The translations under genes and the position numbers were made by a program. Source: Escherichia phage ST0. From it: a stretch of 64,000 nucleotides of DNA. This document shows, piece by piece, positions 3,097 to 28,116 of this stretch. Every line of letters starts with the position of its first letter. The first letter of the stretch is position 1. Location: the sequence record MF044457; one strand, written 5' to 3'. Under the pieces are notes generated by a model. The model saw only the letters and a program-made list of their open reading frames with translations, ran no database searches and was not told the DNA's origin.

Positions 3097-4257
3097 ATGA
3101 ATACCTTTAAAATCGGAACGAATTTTGATTTAGCTCTTCTTGATAAAATCGTAGAGCTCAATAAAACTTATCCTAATAGCTTGATAAACGAAGTATACGG
3201 CTCTACAAGAGAAATGGCTTTTGTAGCAGCCAGACCTGATTTTAGGCTTCCTGACGTTGACAAAAAGATGTTAGAAGATTACGTTAAACGTTGTAACGAA
3301 TTAGGTATTTGCTTTAACTATACACTCAACACGATAAATCCTGGTTCAAAAAGAGAACTAGTTGAGTGGAAGAAGAAAGCTATTCAGGATTATGTTCAGT
3401 ATCTTTGGTCAATAGGCGTATGGCGTATTACTATCGCTAACCCTGTTGTTATGGAAATTGTTCGTGAAGTCAATAAAGACATTGAGATTGAAGTTTCAAC
3501 AATTCTACATGTCGATGCTGTAACTCAAATCAAATACTTGCATGACCAATATAATATCAAAAAGGTCTGCTGCGGAATTCATAAGAACCGTTCAGTTTCT
3601 TTCCTGAAGCGTGCAGCAGAGTTTTGTAATAAGAACAATATAATATTTGAAGTTCTTGTAAATGAGTTCTGTTCTAATGCTGGTAAAGGGTATACAACAC
3701 ATTGTAGTTATCGTGACTCTTGCTATATTTTCCATAGCACCGATGTTACAGTAGATGATGCCAAATCTTTAAATGGATATCCAATGCAACATTGTATTAA
3801 AGCTCGTGATACAGATCCATTTAACTGGTTGAGAACTCGTTTTGTTCGTCCTCAAGATTTGAAACTTTATAATGATATTGGTATCACTCAATTCAAAGTT
3901 TCAGGACGTACAGGTAGCACAGACTACATTTTGAAAGTTCTTGAAGCTTATGCTTCTGAAAAGTTTGAAGGTAATTTGTTGGAATTGTGGAAGCCTTTAG
4001 AGACCATTTTCACTCTTGAAAATGAGACTGAGTTTTCACATACGGTAAATATTGAAACCTCTTTGTTAGATGGCTTTTTAGAAAAAAGGTGGTTCAGACA
4101 TCCAGATTTCGATTGTGCTAATGAAATCTGCGGGACGACGTGTACATATTGTGAAAGATATTATAAACGTCAATTATCTAAAAACGGGTTAGCAGAAAAC
4201 TCTATATCTATTATTGATATAACTAACTCTGATGACGCTTTGAGGTACCCGGAATGA
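3097..4257 (+). CDS. Cys-rich protein with U32-family-like signature, function unknown
   Basis: ORF track 386 aa. EVLVNEFCSNAGKGYTTHCSYRDSC resembles the U32 family signature (E-x-F-x2-G-x-x-C...C-x-x-S); C-terminal CANEICGTTCTYC cluster. Confidence 0.55.
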   Translation: MNTFKIGTNFDLALLDKIVELNKTYPNSLINEVYGSTREMAFVAARPDFRLPDVDKKMLEDYVKRCNELGICFNYTLNTINPGSKRELVEWKKKAIQDYVQYLWSIGVWRITIANPVVMEIVREVNKDIEIEVSTILHVDAVTQIKYLHDQYNIKKVCCGIHKNRSVSFLKRAAEFCNKNNIIFEVLVNEFCSNAGKGYTTHCSYRDSCYIFHSTDVTVDDAKSLNGYPMQHCIKARDTDPFNWLRTRFVRPQDLKLYNDIGITQFKVSGRTGSTDYILKVLEAYASEKFEGNLLELWKPLETIFTLENETEFSHTVNIETSLLDGFLEKRWFRHPDFDCANEICGTTCTYCERYYKRQLSKNGLAENSISIIDITNSDDALRYPE

Positions 4258-21626: not shown

Positions 21627-21656
21627 GTTTACAACCAAGGACGGTTGGAGTATAAT
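21627..21656 (+). promoter_or_regulatory. early promoter
   Basis: GTTTAC, about 18 bp, TATAAT. Confidence 0.55.
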
Positions 21657-21686
21657 CTTTCTATCTTAACCAAACAGGAAAACATT

Positions 21687-22181
21687 ATGAATATCAATAC
21701 TACGGCTACTTACATCCTGAAAGACGAAAAACAAATCAACTGGTACGGTGCTTCAGTGCGAGCTTATGAAAAGTTTTGTGAAATTTTAGGCGCCACTCAA
21801 GGTAATAGTTTCACTATTGTTAACTTCATTAAACAAGCTGAAGGCCCTTGGTTATTCTTAGAAATTAAAAATTCATATGGTACAATTTCTACTACCGCCC
21901 TTCCAAGCACCGACTTTGAACTCTTGATTGAAGAAGCACCTGTTAAAGATGGTCTCCACTTTGATATGGATATCGTTTGTATGTACGGTACTCTGATTAA
22001 GCCTATTGAGCCTACTGATTTATTGTGTAAATATGTTTCAATTCGACGCCCATTCGCTGGTCCAGTAAATGGATGGGTAACTGACCAATGGATTGAAGAT
22101 GGTGTTGAACTTCTGAACGTTGTTCATGCAGGTGATTTTAGTGTAGTTCCGCGTAGTGCTGTGGTTAATATCCTTAATTAA
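21687..22181 (+). CDS. hypothetical protein, tandem paralog family member 1
   Basis: ORF-track TTG start lies inside the promoter; ATG at 21687. C-terminus GWVTDQWIEDGVELLNVVHAGDFSVVP is shared with the next two genes. Confidence 0.5.
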   Translation: MNINTTATYILKDEKQINWYGASVRAYEKFCEILGATQGNSFTIVNFIKQAEGPWLFLEIKNSYGTISTTALPSTDFELLIEEAPVKDGLHFDMDIVCMYGTLIKPIEPTDLLCKYVSIRRPFAGPVNGWVTDQWIEDGVELLNVVHAGDFSVVPRSAVVNILN

Positions 22182-22183
22182 TG

Positions 22184-22213
22184 TTGTACATCCAAGGATG
22201 GATGGAGTATAGT
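22184..22213 (+). promoter_or_regulatory. early promoter
   Basis: TTGTAC, about 18 bp, TATAGT. Confidence 0.45.
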
Positions 22214-22243
22214 GAATTCAATTTAAACAAAGAGAGAGAAATT

Positions 22244-22774
22244 ATGATTACTATTGGTGAAATCCTTCGTGTATCTCCTGCTTCTCGTTCTAAAGCTGCA
22301 GGTCGTCTGGTTGAAGTAGCAGGGCTTCGTACTAACGGCATGGGACGTGTTAAAGAAGTTAAAGTTCGAATCATGCCCAGTTTTGGCGGACAAGATGCCC
22401 AGTATGCTTACGTAAGTCCTAAATTCCTGGAAAAACATATACGAGTCCAATTTGCTTCAAGCGAAGAAGTTGCACCTGCACACTTTGCTTCTGTTGAAGA
22501 AGTTGAATCACGTGATGGATACGTATGTGAATCCGCTGAGCCTAATGTACAGTTCAAATGGGCCCTTTGCAAAGGCGTTGAATTTATAACCGATAAAGAA
22601 TTTGATTACATCGACGAATACGGTTATCCAAGCACAACTGATATCATGTGTGGCTTCATTAGTGACCAATGGGTTGAAGATGGTGAAAAGCTATACAATA
22701 TCGTATTCTTAGGTGACTTCCGAGTTGTTAAAGAATCTGAAATCACTCGCTATGCTTCTCCTCGTAAAGCTTAA
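22244..22774 (+). CDS. hypothetical protein, tandem paralog family member 2
   Basis: Start at ATG 22244 (MITIGEILRVSPASRSKAAGRLVEV); C-terminus GFISDQWVEDGEKLYNIVFLGDFRVV. Confidence 0.5.
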   Translation: MITIGEILRVSPASRSKAAGRLVEVAGLRTNGMGRVKEVKVRIMPSFGGQDAQYAYVSPKFLEKHIRVQFASSEEVAPAHFASVEEVESRDGYVCESAEPNVQFKWALCKGVEFITDKEFDYIDEYGYPSTTDIMCGFISDQWVEDGEKLYNIVFLGDFRVVKESEITRYASPRKA

Positions 22775-22783
22775 GGAATTATT

Positions 22784-23203
22784 ATGAATATTGTAAATCT
22801 CTCTACTGGTGATTACGTATATGTATCTGTTGCTTCTCGCTCTAAAGTTGCCGGGAAGTTGGTTGAAGTTCTTTATGTGAGTGATCCGGTTTTTGGACGT
22901 AACGAAGTTAAAGTTCGTGACGCCGATGGTAACATTGGTTATGTTAAAAGCCAATTCATTGAACCAGAAGAACGTGCGTTCAAATGGAAACTGTGCAGGT
23001 CTGTTTTAGTTGTAAAAGACCATGAATTTACTATTGCTTCTGCAACTGACGGGTCTCCATGGACAACGAATCAAGTTGCTGGTTTTATTTCGGACCGTTG
23101 GGTAGAAGATGGTGTTAAGCTTTATAACATCGTTTTCGCTGGACAGTTCATGGTAGTTCCTGAGTTCCAAATCAAAAAATATTGTCCAGCATCTTTTGCA
23201 TAA
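22784..23203 (+). CDS. hypothetical protein, tandem paralog family member 3
   Basis: 139 aa; N-terminus VSVASRSKVAGKLVEV and C-terminus GFISDRWVEDGVKLYNIVFAGQFMVV. Confidence 0.5.
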   Translation: MNIVNLSTGDYVYVSVASRSKVAGKLVEVLYVSDPVFGRNEVKVRDADGNIGYVKSQFIEPEERAFKWKLCRSVLVVKDHEFTIASATDGSPWTTNQVAGFISDRWVEDGVKLYNIVFAGQFMVVPEFQIKKYCPASFA

Positions 23204-23262: not shown

Positions 23263-23787
23263 ATGTTAGTTTACCGCGTAGAACGTAGTTTTTGTACTCA
23301 ACGTGAATCATTACCAGGAATTGCTATCAAAGACGGTAAAGCCGTCAGAATTTGGGAAACCTCTTGGAATAAAGAACCTCGTTCGCCATACGGTTGGTCG
23401 GGCACCGACAACTCTGAAGAAACATGGGAGTTCCTTGATAAACATGGAATAATCTCAGGTAACTTCTACCATCACGGCGACAACTACAATGTCCCTAATC
23501 GTCCTACAGTAAATGAAGACAAACTCCTTGAACAAAATATCTTAAGATACTATAGAATTGAGCACACATTTGAATTGAGTGAAGATTGGGCTCAAGGGTT
23601 CTATTTTGGATTTGAAAGTGTTGACGCGGTTTATGCATGGTTTGATGACCAGGTGGATGTTGAACTCTTGAAAGCTAAAGGATACTACATCGCGGTCTAT
23701 GAAGCACCTGATTTCATCCTCGGAAGTTGTCAATTAATGTTTAGACGTTCATTGGCAGAACAAGTTGATTTTATTTTGCTAAAATGA
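23263..23787 (+). CDS. hypothetical protein
   Basis: ORF track 174 aa; RBS AGAGGAGAA. Confidence 0.5.
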   Translation: MLVYRVERSFCTQRESLPGIAIKDGKAVRIWETSWNKEPRSPYGWSGTDNSEETWEFLDKHGIISGNFYHHGDNYNVPNRPTVNEDKLLEQNILRYYRIEHTFELSEDWAQGFYFGFESVDAVYAWFDDQVDVELLKAKGYYIAVYEAPDFILGSCQLMFRRSLAEQVDFILLK

Positions 23788-23844: not shown

Positions 23845-24072
23845 ATGAAACGTCAAATCATTAAAAACGTAACTACAGATTCAAACATCGATGAGTTTGA
23901 AGATGTTCTGTTTAATCCTGATTTAGTTGTTGTACAGAAAAACTGGACCGAATTTTTATGCTACACCGAAGTGGTTTACGTTTACGAAAAACTCGGTGAT
24001 GAAATGCCTATCTATGGTATCTTCCGTGAAATCACTGAAAATGGTACAACTTATTGGAAGGAAACTTACTAA
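23845..24072 (+). CDS. hypothetical small protein
   Basis: ORF-track ATG lies in the promoter -10 region; start moved to ATG at 23845 after AGAGGAGAA. Confidence 0.4.
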
Positions 24073-24482
24073 TGGCTAATAAATTCCGCGTTAACTCATG
24101 GTACCAATTTATAGATAAACGTGCCCAAGAAGAGTTTATTAAAGACCACACTGATAATGGGATTTATGCACGACGTCTTGGCATGGAACCATTTAAAGTA
24201 TTAGATGTTGACCATCTTGGACGTCCTACTAAAATTGTGACATCTACCGGCACGGTTGGATACGCAACAGGCGGTGATATCCTTGATGAAAACTTTATCT
24301 GGCTCTCCACGAATGAAGCAGAGTTTTTTGATGAAGTGGGAAATCCATATCAAGCGTCCGAAGAGCAAGATTCTGATGAACTTGACGAATTGTCTGAATT
24401 TCCGGTGATGACGATTACTATCGAAAATAACGACCAGGCATGGTCTTTGTATCAAATGTTGAAAGCACATTTTAAGGAATAA
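24072..24482 (+). CDS. hypothetical acidic protein
   Basis: Start moved to ATG at 24072 ([10 protein letters not shown]...), overlapping the upstream stop. Confidence 0.45.
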
Positions 24483-24484
24483 TA

Positions 24485-24664
24485 ATGCCATTATACGACT
24501 ATAAATGTCAATCTGAAGATTGTGGCCATGAATATGAAAAAATTAAAAGAATTTCTGAACGAGAAAACGATGTTTGCCCTGAATGTCATCGTCTGTCTAC
24601 TCGTCGGGTTTCTGCTCCTAAACATGTGAACGGTGGTTTTTACGACTTACTTAAGAAGGGTTAA
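24485..24664 (+). CDS. FmdB-family-like zinc-ribbon protein, 59 aa, missed by the ORF track
   Basis: Translation MPLYDYKCQSEDCGHEYEKIKRISERENDVCPECHRLSTRRVSAPK... has two CxxC pairs and the MP-x-Y-x-Y-x-C N-terminus typical of FmdB zinc ribbons. Confidence 0.5.
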   Translation: MPLYDYKCQSEDCGHEYEKIKRISERENDVCPECHRLSTRRVSAPKHVNGGFYDLLKKG

Positions 24665-24666
24665 TT

Positions 24667-25092
24667 ATGGCTTTTAAAGGTTTTGAAGTTGGTAAGAAAT
24701 ATCGTATTATCAAAGGACAGGAAGATAATTTCTTGAGAATTCTTAATACGACTGGTAAACGTCTTAATACTAATCTGCATACTACTTTATTGTCCAAAGA
24801 TTTTATTGTGGAAGAGATGATTGGTTACGGCGTTTCGGTGATTGCTGTAGAAGCCGTAGGCGATTATGGCCGAACTATTCATAGTATGCAAGGTGATATT
24901 CTGCTTTATGGTGCAGAATTTAAATTCTTTGAAGAAGTTCCGGAACCAGATACAGCTGTCGATTTCAAAAAAGGCTCTATAGAATTTGTTGATGGTTCGG
25001 TGATCGTATCAGGCGATGTGGTCATTACAGTTAAAAGTGAACAAGGGCGTTTGGCTGCAATTGATGCACTTCAGAAAATTAAATTTAAATAA
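24667..25092 (+). CDS. hypothetical protein
   Basis: ORF track 141 aa; followed directly by a terminator. Confidence 0.5.
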   Translation: MAFKGFEVGKKYRIIKGQEDNFLRILNTTGKRLNTNLHTTLLSKDFIVEEMIGYGVSVIAVEAVGDYGRTIHSMQGDILLYGAEFKFFEEVPEPDTAVDFKKGSIEFVDGSVIVSGDVVITVKSEQGRLAAIDALQKIKFK

Positions 25093-25109
25093 GGGCTTCG
25101 GCCCTTTTT
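25093..25109 (+). terminator. UUCG-tetraloop terminator
   Basis: GGGC-TTCG-GCCC followed by TTTTT. Confidence 0.75.
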
Positions 25110-25133
25110 GCTTTAGATTTCGGATGATAGAAT
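25107..25133 (+). promoter_or_regulatory. middle (MotA-dependent) promoter upstream of gene 39
   Basis: MotA-box-like TTTGCTTTA about 12 bp upstream of a TAGAAT -10; no -35 GTTTAC. Confidence 0.45.
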
Positions 25134-25155: not shown

Positions 25156-26973
25156 ATGATTAAAAATGAAATTAAGGTATTGTCAGATGTAGAACATATT
25201 AAGAAACGCAGTGGCATGTATATTGGTTCTTCGGCCAAAGAAGCCCACGAGCGTTTTTTGTTTGGTAAATATCAACAAGTTGAATATGTTCCTGGTCTGG
25301 TTAAATTAATCGATGAGATTATTGACAACTCGGTTGATGAAGCTATTCGTACATCATTTAAGTTTGCAAATAAAATCGATGTGCAAATTAAAAATAATCA
25401 AGTTTCGGTGGAAGATAACGGACGTGGTATTCCTCAAGCAATGGTCACCGACCAAAATGGTGAACAGATTCCAGGTCCTGTAGCTGCCTGGACTATTCCA
25501 AAGGCCGGTGGTAACTTTGGTGATGACTCTGAACGTAAGACCGGTGGTATGAACGGCGTCGGGAGTAGTTTAACTAATATCTTCTCTACGTTGTTTACAG
25601 GCATAACGTCAGATGGCGAAAATGAAATCACTGTTAACTGTTCAAACGGGATGGAAAACAAATCATGGTCTTCTAAGAAATCTAAAGGTAAAGGCACTAA
25701 AGTAATCTTCACTCCTGATTTCTCTTCATTTGAAGAGCATAATTTATCTCAAATTTATTTAGATATTACTTTAGACCGACTTCAAACGTTGGCAGTCGTT
25801 TATCCTGATATCAAGTTCACATTTAATGGTAAAAAGGTTGACGGTAATTTTAAACGATTTGCTAAACAATTTGGCGAAGATAACATCATTCAAGAAAATG
25901 ATAAAGTCTCTATAGCATTCACAACATCACCAGACGGCTTCCGTCATTTAACTTATGTGAATAACATCCATACTAAAAATGGTGGTCATCATGTTGAATG
26001 TGTAATGGATGATATCTGCGAACATCTTTTGCCCGGCATTAAAAAGAAATATAAGGGTATTGAAGTCACTAAAGCTCGTGTTAAAGAATGTCTCACAATG
26101 TTGATGTTTATTAGAGACATGAGCAACATGCGTTTTGATTCTCAGACTAAAGAACGTTTAACGTCAACGTATGGTGATATTCGTAATCATATCCAATTAG
26201 ATGCTAAGAAAATTGCTCAGGCACTTCTTAAAAACGAAGCCTTGATTATGCCTATTGTTGAAGCAGCATTAGCTCGTAAATTGGCAGCAGAAAAGGCTGC
26301 AGAAACTAAAGCAGCTAAAAAGGCAACTAAAGCTAAGGTTCATAAGCATATTAAAGCTAACCAATGTGGTAAAGATGCAGATACGACATTGTTTTTAACA
26401 GAAGGTGATTCGGCAATTGGTTATCTCATTGATGTTCGTGACCGTGAACTACACGGTGGATTCCCATTACGTGGTAAGGTGATGAATAGCTGGGGTATGA
26501 CATATGCTGATATGATGAAGAACAAAGAGCTCTTTGATATCTGTGCTATCACAGGTCTTATTCTTGGTGAAAAGGCAGAGAATACGAACTATCGTAATAT
26601 TGCAATTATGACCGATGCCGATCATGACGGTCTTGGAAGTATTTATCCGGCTTTGCTTGCTTTCTTTAGTAATTGGCCTGAATTGTTTGAACAAGGACGT
26701 ATTCGCTTTGTTAAAACGCCTGTAATTATTGCACAAATTGGCAAAACTCAAAAATGGTTTTATACTGTAGCTGAGTATGAAGAAGCTAAAGATACACTAC
26801 CTAAGCATAGTATTCGATACATCAAGGGATTAGGCTCCCTTGAAAAGTCAGAATATCGTGAAATGATTCAGAACCCTGTGTACGACGTAGTTAAACTTCC
26901 TGAAAATTGGAAAGAACTCTTTGAAATGTTGTTGGGTGATGATTCAGAACTTCGTAAAGAATGGATGTCCTAA
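25156..26973 (+). CDS. 39: DNA topoisomerase II large subunit, genes 39 and 60 fused in one ORF
   Basis: 605 aa; N-terminal GHKL ATPase (LSDVEHIKKRSGMYIGS, IDNSVDEA); C-terminal 130 aa match remembered T4 gp60 (IAIMTDADHDGLGSIYP...KLPENWKELFEMLLGD). Confidence 0.95.
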   Translation: MIKNEIKVLSDVEHIKKRSGMYIGSSAKEAHERFLFGKYQQVEYVPGLVKLIDEIIDNSVDEAIRTSFKFANKIDVQIKNNQVSVEDNGRGIPQAMVTDQNGEQIPGPVAAWTIPKAGGNFGDDSERKTGGMNGVGSSLTNIFSTLFTGITSDGENEITVNCSNGMENKSWSSKKSKGKGTKVIFTPDFSSFEEHNLSQIYLDITLDRLQTLAVVYPDIKFTFNGKKVDGNFKRFAKQFGEDNIIQENDKVSIAFTTSPDGFRHLTYVNNIHTKNGGHHVECVMDDICEHLLPGIKKKYKGIEVTKARVKECLTMLMFIRDMSNMRFDSQTKERLTSTYGDIRNHIQLDAKKIAQALLKNEALIMPIVEAALARKLAAEKAAETKAAKKATKAKVHKHIKANQCGKDADTTLFLTEGDSAIGYLIDVRDRELHGGFPLRGKVMNSWGMTYADMMKNKELFDICAITGLILGEKAENTNYRNIAIMTDADHDGLGSIYPALLAFFSNWPELFEQGRIRFVKTPVIIAQIGKTQKWFYTVAEYEEAKDTLPKHSIRYIKGLGSLEKSEYREMIQNPVYDVVKLPENWKELFEMLLGDDSELRKEWMS

Positions 26974-27015: not shown

Positions 27016-28116
27016 ATGAAAGTTATGTTTATCCCATCTCGTGCAGTCCCATTTAATCCTGACCGTGTACAAGGTGGCCTTGAAGCAGTACATTTAAATG
27101 TGTTGAAATATCTTGTGTCCATCGGTGCTGATATTGATTATATCGGCTTTGATAATGACACGTTTGGTGACTGGAAAGTTACACACCATCCTGTTGGTCA
27201 TCTGACTAAATTCAGTCTAGGTATGAGTTATACTATGGCTCGTAAGATTGTTGAACTAGCCGACATCCATGAATACGATTTTGTTGTTACTATGGAACCG
27301 ACTAAACTAACCGTTCAGGCAATTAAAGACGCAGGTCTCTCTAAAGTTCATAAGAATTTTATGGCAACACCATTTGAACCGGTATCTCGTGGCATTGTTC
27401 AAATTTGGGACCAGACTATTCAAATTCATAAGAATGGTGGTAAGAGTTATGCTCCTACTAAAGCCTTCCGTGAATTTGAACGTAAATATTGCCATATGAC
27501 TTCAGCTCTGACTGACAAAATTGATTATGATTATTGGCGAGCAAATCCGTTGTTTGAAGCCGAAGATTATCCGGTTATTTGTTTGAATGAGAAACCTGAA
27601 GTTCTTCCAGCGACTGATCTGATTATTAGTGCACAACGTTATGACACTAAAATGCGTCGTACTGATGTTGCTCTTGAAGCAATTAAAGCACTAGGCGAAA
27701 ATGGTATTGGTTATTGTCCTAGTAAATGGGCACCACCAGCTAAATATCCTGTTATTATTGATGCTCCACACAGTGAAATCATGGAACGTCTTAAAACAGC
27801 TAAAGCACTTATTAATACGTGTCCTGACACAGGTACGGTAGAGAATAGTTCTATTGAAGCCATCTCTAAAGGTGTCCCTGTAATCCAGTTAGCTTTTAAG
27901 GATTATCCTCATGCGACATTCGAATACGACCCAGATACTGTGCGTGTCGAAATTGATTCCTCTACTCCTAAGAAAGAAGTAGTTGCGCTTTACACAAAAG
28001 CTGTATTAGAATTCACTGACACATACGAAGCTCGAGTTAAACGTGCTGAAGCAGTATGGAAGAAGTATAATCGAGATGCAGTTGTTGCGATGTGGGATAA
28101 AATCTTCACAGCGTAA
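27016..28116 (+). CDS. GT-B-fold glycosyltransferase-like protein (candidate DNA hmC glycosyltransferase)
   Basis: 366 aa; C-terminal ENSSIEAISKGVPVI resembles the E-x-x-x-x-EA...G-x-PVI donor-binding motif of GT4-type GT-B enzymes. Lies between 39/60 and rIIA. Confidence 0.65.
   Translation: MKVMFIPSRAVPFNPDRVQGGLEAVHLNVLKYLVSIGADIDYIGFDNDTFGDWKVTHHPVGHLTKFSLGMSYTMARKIVELADIHEYDFVVTMEPTKLTVQAIKDAGLSKVHKNFMATPFEPVSRGIVQIWDQTIQIHKNGGKSYAPTKAFREFERKYCHMTSALTDKIDYDYWRANPLFEAEDYPVICLNEKPEVLPATDLIISAQRYDTKMRRTDVALEAIKALGENGIGYCPSKWAPPAKYPVIIDAPHSEIMERLKTAKALINTCPDTGTVENSSIEAISKGVPVIQLAFKDYPHATFEYDPDTVRVEIDSSTPKKEVVALYTKAVLEFTDTYEARVKRAEAVWKKYNRDAVVAMWDKIFTA

Follow-up and report, generated by a model that had tools for sequence, protein, structure and literature searches.

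Gene 39.2 of Escherichia phage ST0 encodes an FmdB-family zinc-ribbon protein whose T4 orthologue is linked to the host chaperonin GroEL

We analysed a stretch of 64,000 nt from Escherichia phage ST0 (sequence record MF044457), referred to as the window throughout. Reading of the sequence revealed an open reading frame of 59 codons on the plus strand at 24485..24664, starting with ATG at 24485 and ending with TAA at 24662-24664, whose translation is MPLYDYKCQSEDCGHEYEKIKRISERENDVCPECHRLSTRRVSAPKHVNGGFYDLLKKG. Based on HMM matches and on identity to the corresponding proteins of phages RB69 and T4, this frame was assigned as the orthologue of gene 39.2, encoding an FmdB-family zinc-ribbon protein. 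A Shine-Dalgarno sequence (AAGGA, plus strand, 24474..24478) could be read 6 nt 5' of the start codon, within the last codons of the preceding gene. The stop codon of that gene has its last base at 24482, and the gene after 39.2 begins with an ATG at 24667, leaving a gap of 2 nt on either side of 39.2. Thus, the tight packing between neighbours described in the initial annotation is fully reflected in the gene arrangement.

The genes at this locus occur in the order cef, goF, 39.2, a goF-like gene and gene 39, all on the same strand. The goF orthologue (24072..24482), the product of which is 74% identical to T4 GoF, forms the conserved left flank of 39.2. The goF-like gene (24667..25092) encodes a distant paralogue of 141 aa (phrog_622, E = 7e-22) and occupies the place of T4 39.1. 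In Mosigvirus, 39.2 is hence flanked by two goF-family genes, as is likewise the case in RB69, and T4 39.1 is unrelated. The idea that the 141-aa frame and goF are recent duplicates was dropped, since the pairwise similarity is marginal (E of 0.02-0.04), although both match phrog_622. A terminator-like hairpin, AAGGGCTTCGGCCCTT followed by TTTTGCTT, was picked up solely by consensus scan on the plus strand at 25091..25114; located just before gene 39, it is likely to mark the end of the transcription unit containing 39.2. Gene 39 (25156..26973) encodes the large subunit of DNA topoisomerase II in its fused form of 605 aa and served as the right-hand landmark of synteny. As in RB69, it is uninterrupted (gp39 and gp60 fused) and contains neither the split into mobA and gene 60 nor the translational-bypass element of T4. 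It is followed at 27016-28116 by a frame of 366 aa with no function assigned, which is also found at this position in RB69 (ORF003c).

The position of 39.2 is largely conserved among T4-type phages. Among Tevenvirinae, the order from goF to 39.2 and on to gene 39 is kept in T4, RB69 and Moon, and in Krischvirus ECD7 and Pseudotevenvirus Miller 39.2 is located directly upstream of gene 39. In Muldoon, 39.2 is found downstream of dda/dexA, and gene 39 is absent from the stretch examined. Further upstream in the window (plus strand, 21645-23203), three consecutive frames of 178, 197 and 139 aa have a C-terminal motif in common, ..D.W[IV]EDG..L.N[IV]V..G.F.VV.., and on this basis resemble tandem motB-like paralogues. 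In Escherichia phage vB_EcoM-ZQ3, the counterparts of these three frames and of the next coding sequence (window 23263-23787) are labelled 'transcriptional regulator'.

The surroundings of 39.2 are AT-rich, and 64 ORFs of at least 30 aa were counted in the six frames of 5.5 kb. Many of these are spurious, with lengths of 30-96 aa; the largest example is a 96-aa antisense frame at 24201..24491. Because the region is that rich in spurious ORFs, length alone provides no evidence for 39.2. The frame nevertheless stands out from chance, since its HMM scores exceed the curated cut-offs, the dN/dS ratios (Nei-Gojobori) among seven Tevenvirinae orthologues range from 0.02 to 0.23, at dS values of 0.24 to >3 and hence partly near saturation, and tblastn detected Gp39.2 in 954 phage records. 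These ratios demonstrate that 39.2 is under strong purifying selection. The initial annotation, which had called the gene 'probably real' and had proposed a family search and a survey of relatives as checks, is borne out by the HMM scores, the low dN/dS and this conservation: two family profiles, PF09723 and TIGR02605, scored above their curated cut-offs, and the frame is conserved across the phage records. A missing family match and missing conservation, which it had named as grounds for giving up the gene, are thus contradicted on both counts.

An origin of the frame by chance, or its decay into a pseudogene lacking any protein function, might be considered given that the ORF is short, that the region is full of spurious ORFs, and that frameshifted versions are present in a few public records (45 aa in T4 RefSeq and two 47-aa phage proteins). 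Apart from the scores and the dN/dS ratios, however, the gene has a good Shine-Dalgarno sequence, and seven columns are invariant across 20 aligned homologues. The T4 frameshift is peculiar to the old reference sequence, with none of the re-sequenced T4 genomes containing it, and a deletion phenotype has been published for T4 39.2, as relayed in a passage of PMC5153855. This reading is already refuted by these tests and its probability is negligible; 39.2 is confirmed as a real protein-coding gene. Searches over the ORF for other kinds of elements yielded no signal. There was no RNA family in Rfam, and the RNA folding z-score of +1.05 gave no indication of a hidden structured RNA. No PADLOC defence model matched. 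A promoter scan returned 20 sites compared to 19.1 expected, and therefore no signal above chance, including the antisense matches inside the ORF.

The window belongs to a Mosigvirus, a T4-type phage similar to RB69 and JS09. Between 23800 and 25300, it is 98.7% identical to its closest relative, Escherichia phage vB_EcoM-ZQ3 (Mosigvirus JS09), in which the same ORF is annotated as 'zinc ribbon domain-containing protein' (QWY13272). The protein is 100% identical to that of RB69 (NP_861696, RB69p006) and 82% identical (47/57) to the 58-aa Gp39.2 of re-sequenced T4 (T4T). The ORF is thus the Mosigvirus copy of the T4-type gene 39.2 (Gp39.2, alias NwgI), which is already known and annotated. Labels among the 954 phage records comprise '39.2', 'gp39.2 hypothetical protein', 'FmdB-like transcriptional regulator' and 'zinc ribbon domain-containing protein'. 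The initial description as a 'missed' gene therefore does not hold, as the same ORF is annotated in RB69, in vB_EcoM-ZQ3 and in most of the relatives listed.

The N-terminal motif, the four cysteines and the SAPKHVNGGFYDLLK tail are all preserved between the protein and its T4 counterpart, and both T4 and RB69 carry the gene at the same position between goF and gene 39. At 59 aa, the protein of phage ST0 is longer than the 58-aa T4 protein by an extra lysine near the C-terminus. Ten substitutions distinguish the two, most of them conservative and located between the knuckles. On the 3' side, the goF-like paralogue contrasts with the lipoprotein-like gene 39.1 of T4.

Gp39.2 is a bona fide member of the FmdB/Zn_ribbon_8 family, and the likeness extends past the ribbon to a C-terminal motif. 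Pfam PF09723 (Zn_ribbon_8) matched with 49.3 bits (cut-off 34.4, E = 5e-13), aligning residues 1-42 to positions 1-40 of the 41 model positions, and NCBIfam TIGR02605 (FmdB family zinc ribbon protein) matched with 48.0 bits (cut-off 31.3). The protein also matches PHROG 1076. Within the 59 aa, Pfam detected nothing beyond zinc-binding modules. Profile-profile comparison by hhalign of 20 phage-type with 11 bacterial FmdB sequences gave a full-length alignment including the tail, with a probability of 99.5% and an E-value of 6e-23. An exhaustive HMMER search of 1.84 billion representative proteins recovered 252 relatives at E ≤1e-3, of which only 5 reached ≤1e-10; the family is short and fast-diverging. 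A word-indexed protein search returned only 8 near-identical matches, so that the family becomes visible only by exhaustive HMMER.

The FmdB family takes its name from FmdB of Methylophilus methylotrophus. Its bacterial members resemble Gp39.2 in three respects, namely the MP(I/L)Y(E/D)Y.C start at the initiator methionine, two metal-binding knuckles separated by about 17 residues, and S-A-P ... G-G-(F/W)-Y ... D after the ribbon. The FmdB-type N-terminus noted in the initial annotation is indeed present, as MPLYDYKC fits the family start from the initiator methionine, and across 50 aligned sequences M1, P2, Y4, Y6 and C8 reach a conservation of at least 90%. Its 'two CxxC pairs', in contrast, need to be amended. 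The second pair is correct (C31-x2-C34, CPEC), but the first is Cx4C (C8-x4-C13, CQSEDC), unlike the CxxC of the family. Such a first knuckle, with an insertion of 2 residues relative to CxxC, also occurs in other family members retrieved, and the 17-residue spacer between the two knuckles is the usual one. The post-ribbon motif SAP...GG(F/W)Y is present as SAPKHVNGGFYD. In 70 of 156 sequences retrieved, G.G[FWY][YFW] is found near residue 50 after the ribbon, the typical bacterial form being SAP.F.LKGGGWYETDF. By hhalign, the GGFYD of the phage protein was aligned to bacterial GGGWYETDF; compared to the bacterial K-GGGWYETDF, the phage form has a deletion of 2 residues. Many bacterial members possess a long Ser/Gly/Ala-rich low-complexity tail, whereas Gp39.2 ends right past the motif. 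The corresponding Ser/Gly-rich C-terminal extension (the 'SSSS' of the NCBIfam name) is absent, the protein stopping 5 residues after GGFYD; this extension is common in the family, not universal, many short members lack it, and neither HMM requires it.

The zinc-ribbon core comprises residues 1-42 (24485..24610, plus strand), as delimited by the Pfam match, the AlphaFold2 model and the conserved columns, and begins with the N-terminal motif MPLYDYKC. The conserved columns identify as putative zinc ligands C8 (24506-24508), C13 (24521-24523), C31 (24575-24577) and C34 (24584-24586), from which we infer that zinc is bound via these four cysteines. According to the alignments and the model, residues 43-59 (24611..24661, plus strand) form the C-terminal tail, SAPKHVNGGFYDLLKKG, with GGFYD encoded at 24632-24646. 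AlphaFold2, run with the 50-sequence alignment, yielded a mean pLDDT of 79 for the protein. The core was modelled as four short strands in a zinc-ribbon arrangement at a pLDDT of about 86, and the tail, containing one short helical turn, at low confidence (pLDDT 58-67). Because of this low model confidence, the tail is predicted to be probably flexible.

Across 20 phage homologues (four orthologues from other genera plus database homologues), M1, C8, C34, P45, G50, G51 and D54 are invariant, and P2, Y4, Y6, R26, A44 and Y53 are nearly so, with A44 and Y53 conserved to at least 90%. The tail motif is thus conserved at least as strongly as the metal ligands. We propose that the conserved tail serves as a partner-binding or contact element. 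In the Gp39.2 proteins of Krischvirus ECD7 and Muldoonvirus Muldoon, the first knuckle is C-x2-H (C.EHG), with a histidine replacing the second cysteine; in those of Pseudotevenvirus Miller and Moonvirus Moon, one knuckle is CxC, and the second knuckle of Moon is C-x4-C. Despite this varying ligand pattern, the GGFYD tail is unchanged in all four.

No solved relative of the protein emerged, either by sequence or by fold. A PDB sequence search with Gp39.2 revealed no relative and returned only weak matches to ribosomal protein bL31 (E of about 0.3-0.5); a relationship to bL31 was rejected, as the matches are non-significant and reflect a shared zinc-ribbon sequence pattern. A Foldseek search of the model against the PDB likewise produced nothing significant, the best E-value being 0.56, with generic zinc ribbons (RbpA, the MCM N-terminal domain and RpoP) on top. 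Actinobacterial RbpA, archaeal RpoP/Rpb12 and the MCM N-terminal zinc ribbon, examples of small zinc ribbons that attach to large machines, have the general zinc-ribbon topology in common with the model. However, they matched at E-values of at least 0.5 and TM values of 0.4-0.5 and display no sequence similarity or shared motif beyond the metal ligands.

For the bacterial relatives, we examined 80 gammaproteobacterial loci that were found with the bacterial sub-alignment. In 73 of them, a FmdB gene of the GGGWYETDF type is located immediately upstream of, and co-directional with, aspS, which encodes aspartate--tRNA ligase, as confirmed by NCBIfam in one locus. In five of six loci without an aspS match, the sequence ends soon after the FmdB gene. 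Neither groES nor groEL occurred within 6 kb on either side of the FmdB gene in any of the 80 loci. The bacterial genes are hence linked to aspS and not to a topoisomerase or chaperonin gene. No tested function for any bacterial FmdB member was found in the literature searched.

A specific role has been attributed to the T4 orthologue. PMC5153855, citing Ang & Georgopoulos 2012 (Genetics 190:989), describes T4 Gp39.2 as a 58-aa peptide. In the passage concerned, genetic and biochemical studies are said to suggest that T4 Gp39.2 shifts GroEL to an open conformation that binds host and phage cochaperonins, and certain groEL mutant hosts are stated to block T4 lacking 39.2 completely (PMC5153855). 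The 'regulators or inhibitors' of the initial annotation thus pointed in a direction that was too vague, as the orthologue has a specific published role according to this account, which is modulation of the host GroEL chaperonin. We infer that Gp39.2 of phage ST0 does what T4 Gp39.2 does. A modulator of the host chaperonin is preferred over a transcription factor because the T4 orthologue modulates GroEL and because its deletion fails on certain groEL hosts. By analogy to T4, Gp39.2 would therefore be a small early protein adjusting host GroEL to the needs of phage protein folding, one that the phage could do without on standard hosts but that would be decisive on some GroEL variants; we assign this reading a probability of roughly 0.85.

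During infection, Gp39.2 would act on host GroEL and favour its 'open' conformation, in which a cochaperonin is accepted, either host GroES or phage Gp31; the gene for the phage cochaperonin, gene 31, is located outside the window. In this way, Gp39.2 may help GroEL-dependent folding of phage proteins. It would be dispensable on ordinary hosts and become decisive where GroEL alleles bind the cochaperonin poorly, so that it might represent a factor of host adaptation or fitness. The 2012 selection by Ang and Georgopoulos reportedly first recovered gene 39.2 of RB69; if so, the selected clone encoded the same protein as the window, since the two proteins are identical. GroES and T4 Gp31 act on the same host machine, although this is a functional analogy only. 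They cap GroEL, whereas Gp39.2 would modulate it, and they are β-barrel heptamers as opposed to a zinc ribbon, with no relationship in sequence or fold. Speculatively, the Gp39.2 tail, which is predicted to be flexible, resembles the mobile loop of GroES and Gp31 in that both display Gly-Gly followed by hydrophobic residues; the sequence of the GroES loop is SAGGIVL.

Two other readings of the protein's function were weighed against modulation of GroEL. Unlikely in our view is a host target other than, or in addition to, GroEL, such as the machinery of translation or tRNA charging, with the GroEL phenotypes as indirect effects. Such a target would be in line with the position of bacterial FmdB genes immediately 5' of aspS in 73 of the 80 loci from gammaproteobacteria, with the neighbours cef and goF, which by annotation act on tRNA and mRNA, and with the weak PDB sequence matches to bL31 (E of about 0.3). 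However, the bacterial gene neighbourhood says little about a phage protein, and the bL31 match is non-significant and stems from the zinc-ribbon pattern in common. Overproduction of Gp39.2 is said to be lethal to E. coli, which would be poorly explained by a mild GroEL activator. The work cited in PMC5153855, by contrast, is presented there as supporting an effect on GroEL by both genetics and biochemistry, along with an allele-specific requirement. Quite unlikely is a transcriptional regulator that binds DNA or RNA polymerase and controls phage or host genes, even though RefSeq and PHROG 1076 carry the label 'FmdB-like transcriptional regulator' and 39.2 is located in the early region beside motB-like genes listed as transcription regulators in some records. 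Small zinc ribbons that bind RNA polymerase or sigma factors (RbpA, YdjO-SigA and RpoP; E of 0.5-2) are also among the weak top fold matches, but all fold matches are non-significant, the protein has only 59 aa, and its Pfam matches are restricted to zinc-binding modules. Moreover, a different activity has experimental support for the T4 orthologue in the account given by PMC5153855.

With regard to the database label, work from 1996 on Methylophilus FmdB is said to have suggested a regulator role without a test and to be the origin of the label. We found no study in the literature searched that tested a regulatory role, or DNA binding or transcription, for any family member. The label 'transcriptional regulator' for 39.2 is therefore probably an inherited guess and misleading. 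The most far-reaching reading starts from the tail (S-A-P ... G-G-F/W-Y-D) that Gp39.2 and the very widespread bacterial FmdB proteins have in common. This tail might be a chaperonin-binding element that docks to the GroEL apical domain like the GroES mobile loop, in which case the FmdB family as a whole would consist of endogenous chaperonin modulators. If true, the function of the bacterial family at large, as chaperonin modulators rather than 'regulatory proteins', would become apparent from the GroEL activity of T4 Gp39.2. We consider this a distinct long shot, as the lack of groESL linkage (0 of 80 loci) and the pairing with aspS (73 of 80) point elsewhere. Because the bacterial relatives have no genomic link to groESL, the GroEL role may be specific to the phage branch.

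Modulation of GroEL accordingly remains the preferred reading for Gp39.2. Taken together, 39.2 is a real gene, its FmdB assignment is correct, and its function is already known for the T4 orthologue. 'Gp39.2/NwgI GroEL modulator' is a better-supported name than the 'FmdB-like transcriptional regulator' of RefSeq and PHROGs. For the window itself, the gene matters little, as it is annotated in public relatives and the function of the orthologue is published. Within the FmdB family, we found an experimentally attributed activity only for the phage branch in the literature searched. Because an activity is known for this branch and the tail is conserved throughout the family, the tail motif offers a cheap starting point for testing what the bacterial members do.

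Two groups of public entries for 39.2 deviate from the remainder. Across 39.2-39.1, none of the re-sequenced T4 genomes agrees with the T4 reference sequence (NC_000866/AF158101, together with the older entries M89919 and X06220). When 91 nt of this region were used as a query, identity was 100% only for those four T4 records; the others matched at 94.5% over 90 nt. The stretches compared were 3399-3840 of NC_000866, minus strand, and 221-660 of T4T (HM137666), given as positions in the extracted loci. The RefSeq 39.2 encodes 45 aa ('5.1 kDa') and lacks the conserved GGFYD tail, compared to 58 aa in T4T; similarly, 39.1 has 65 aa in RefSeq and 86 aa in T4T, the latter with a lipoprotein-type signal (..AVSLIGC..). 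The T4 RefSeq entry of 39.2 is thus truncated through errors in the old sequence, and the GGFYD tail, where conservation of the protein is highest, is thereby hidden. The second group comprises the 47-aa proteins of Shigella phage vB_SsoM_113 and Salmonella phage Manna, which begin like Gp39.2 but, from ..DVC(P/L)N onwards, continue as ..(V/A)IVCLLVGLLLLSM. Sequence of this IVCLLVGLLLLSM type corresponds to a +1-frame ORF at 24522-24629 of the window. These 47-aa proteins are frameshifted gene calls, arising from either a sequencing error or a real mutation, and do not represent a distinct protein.
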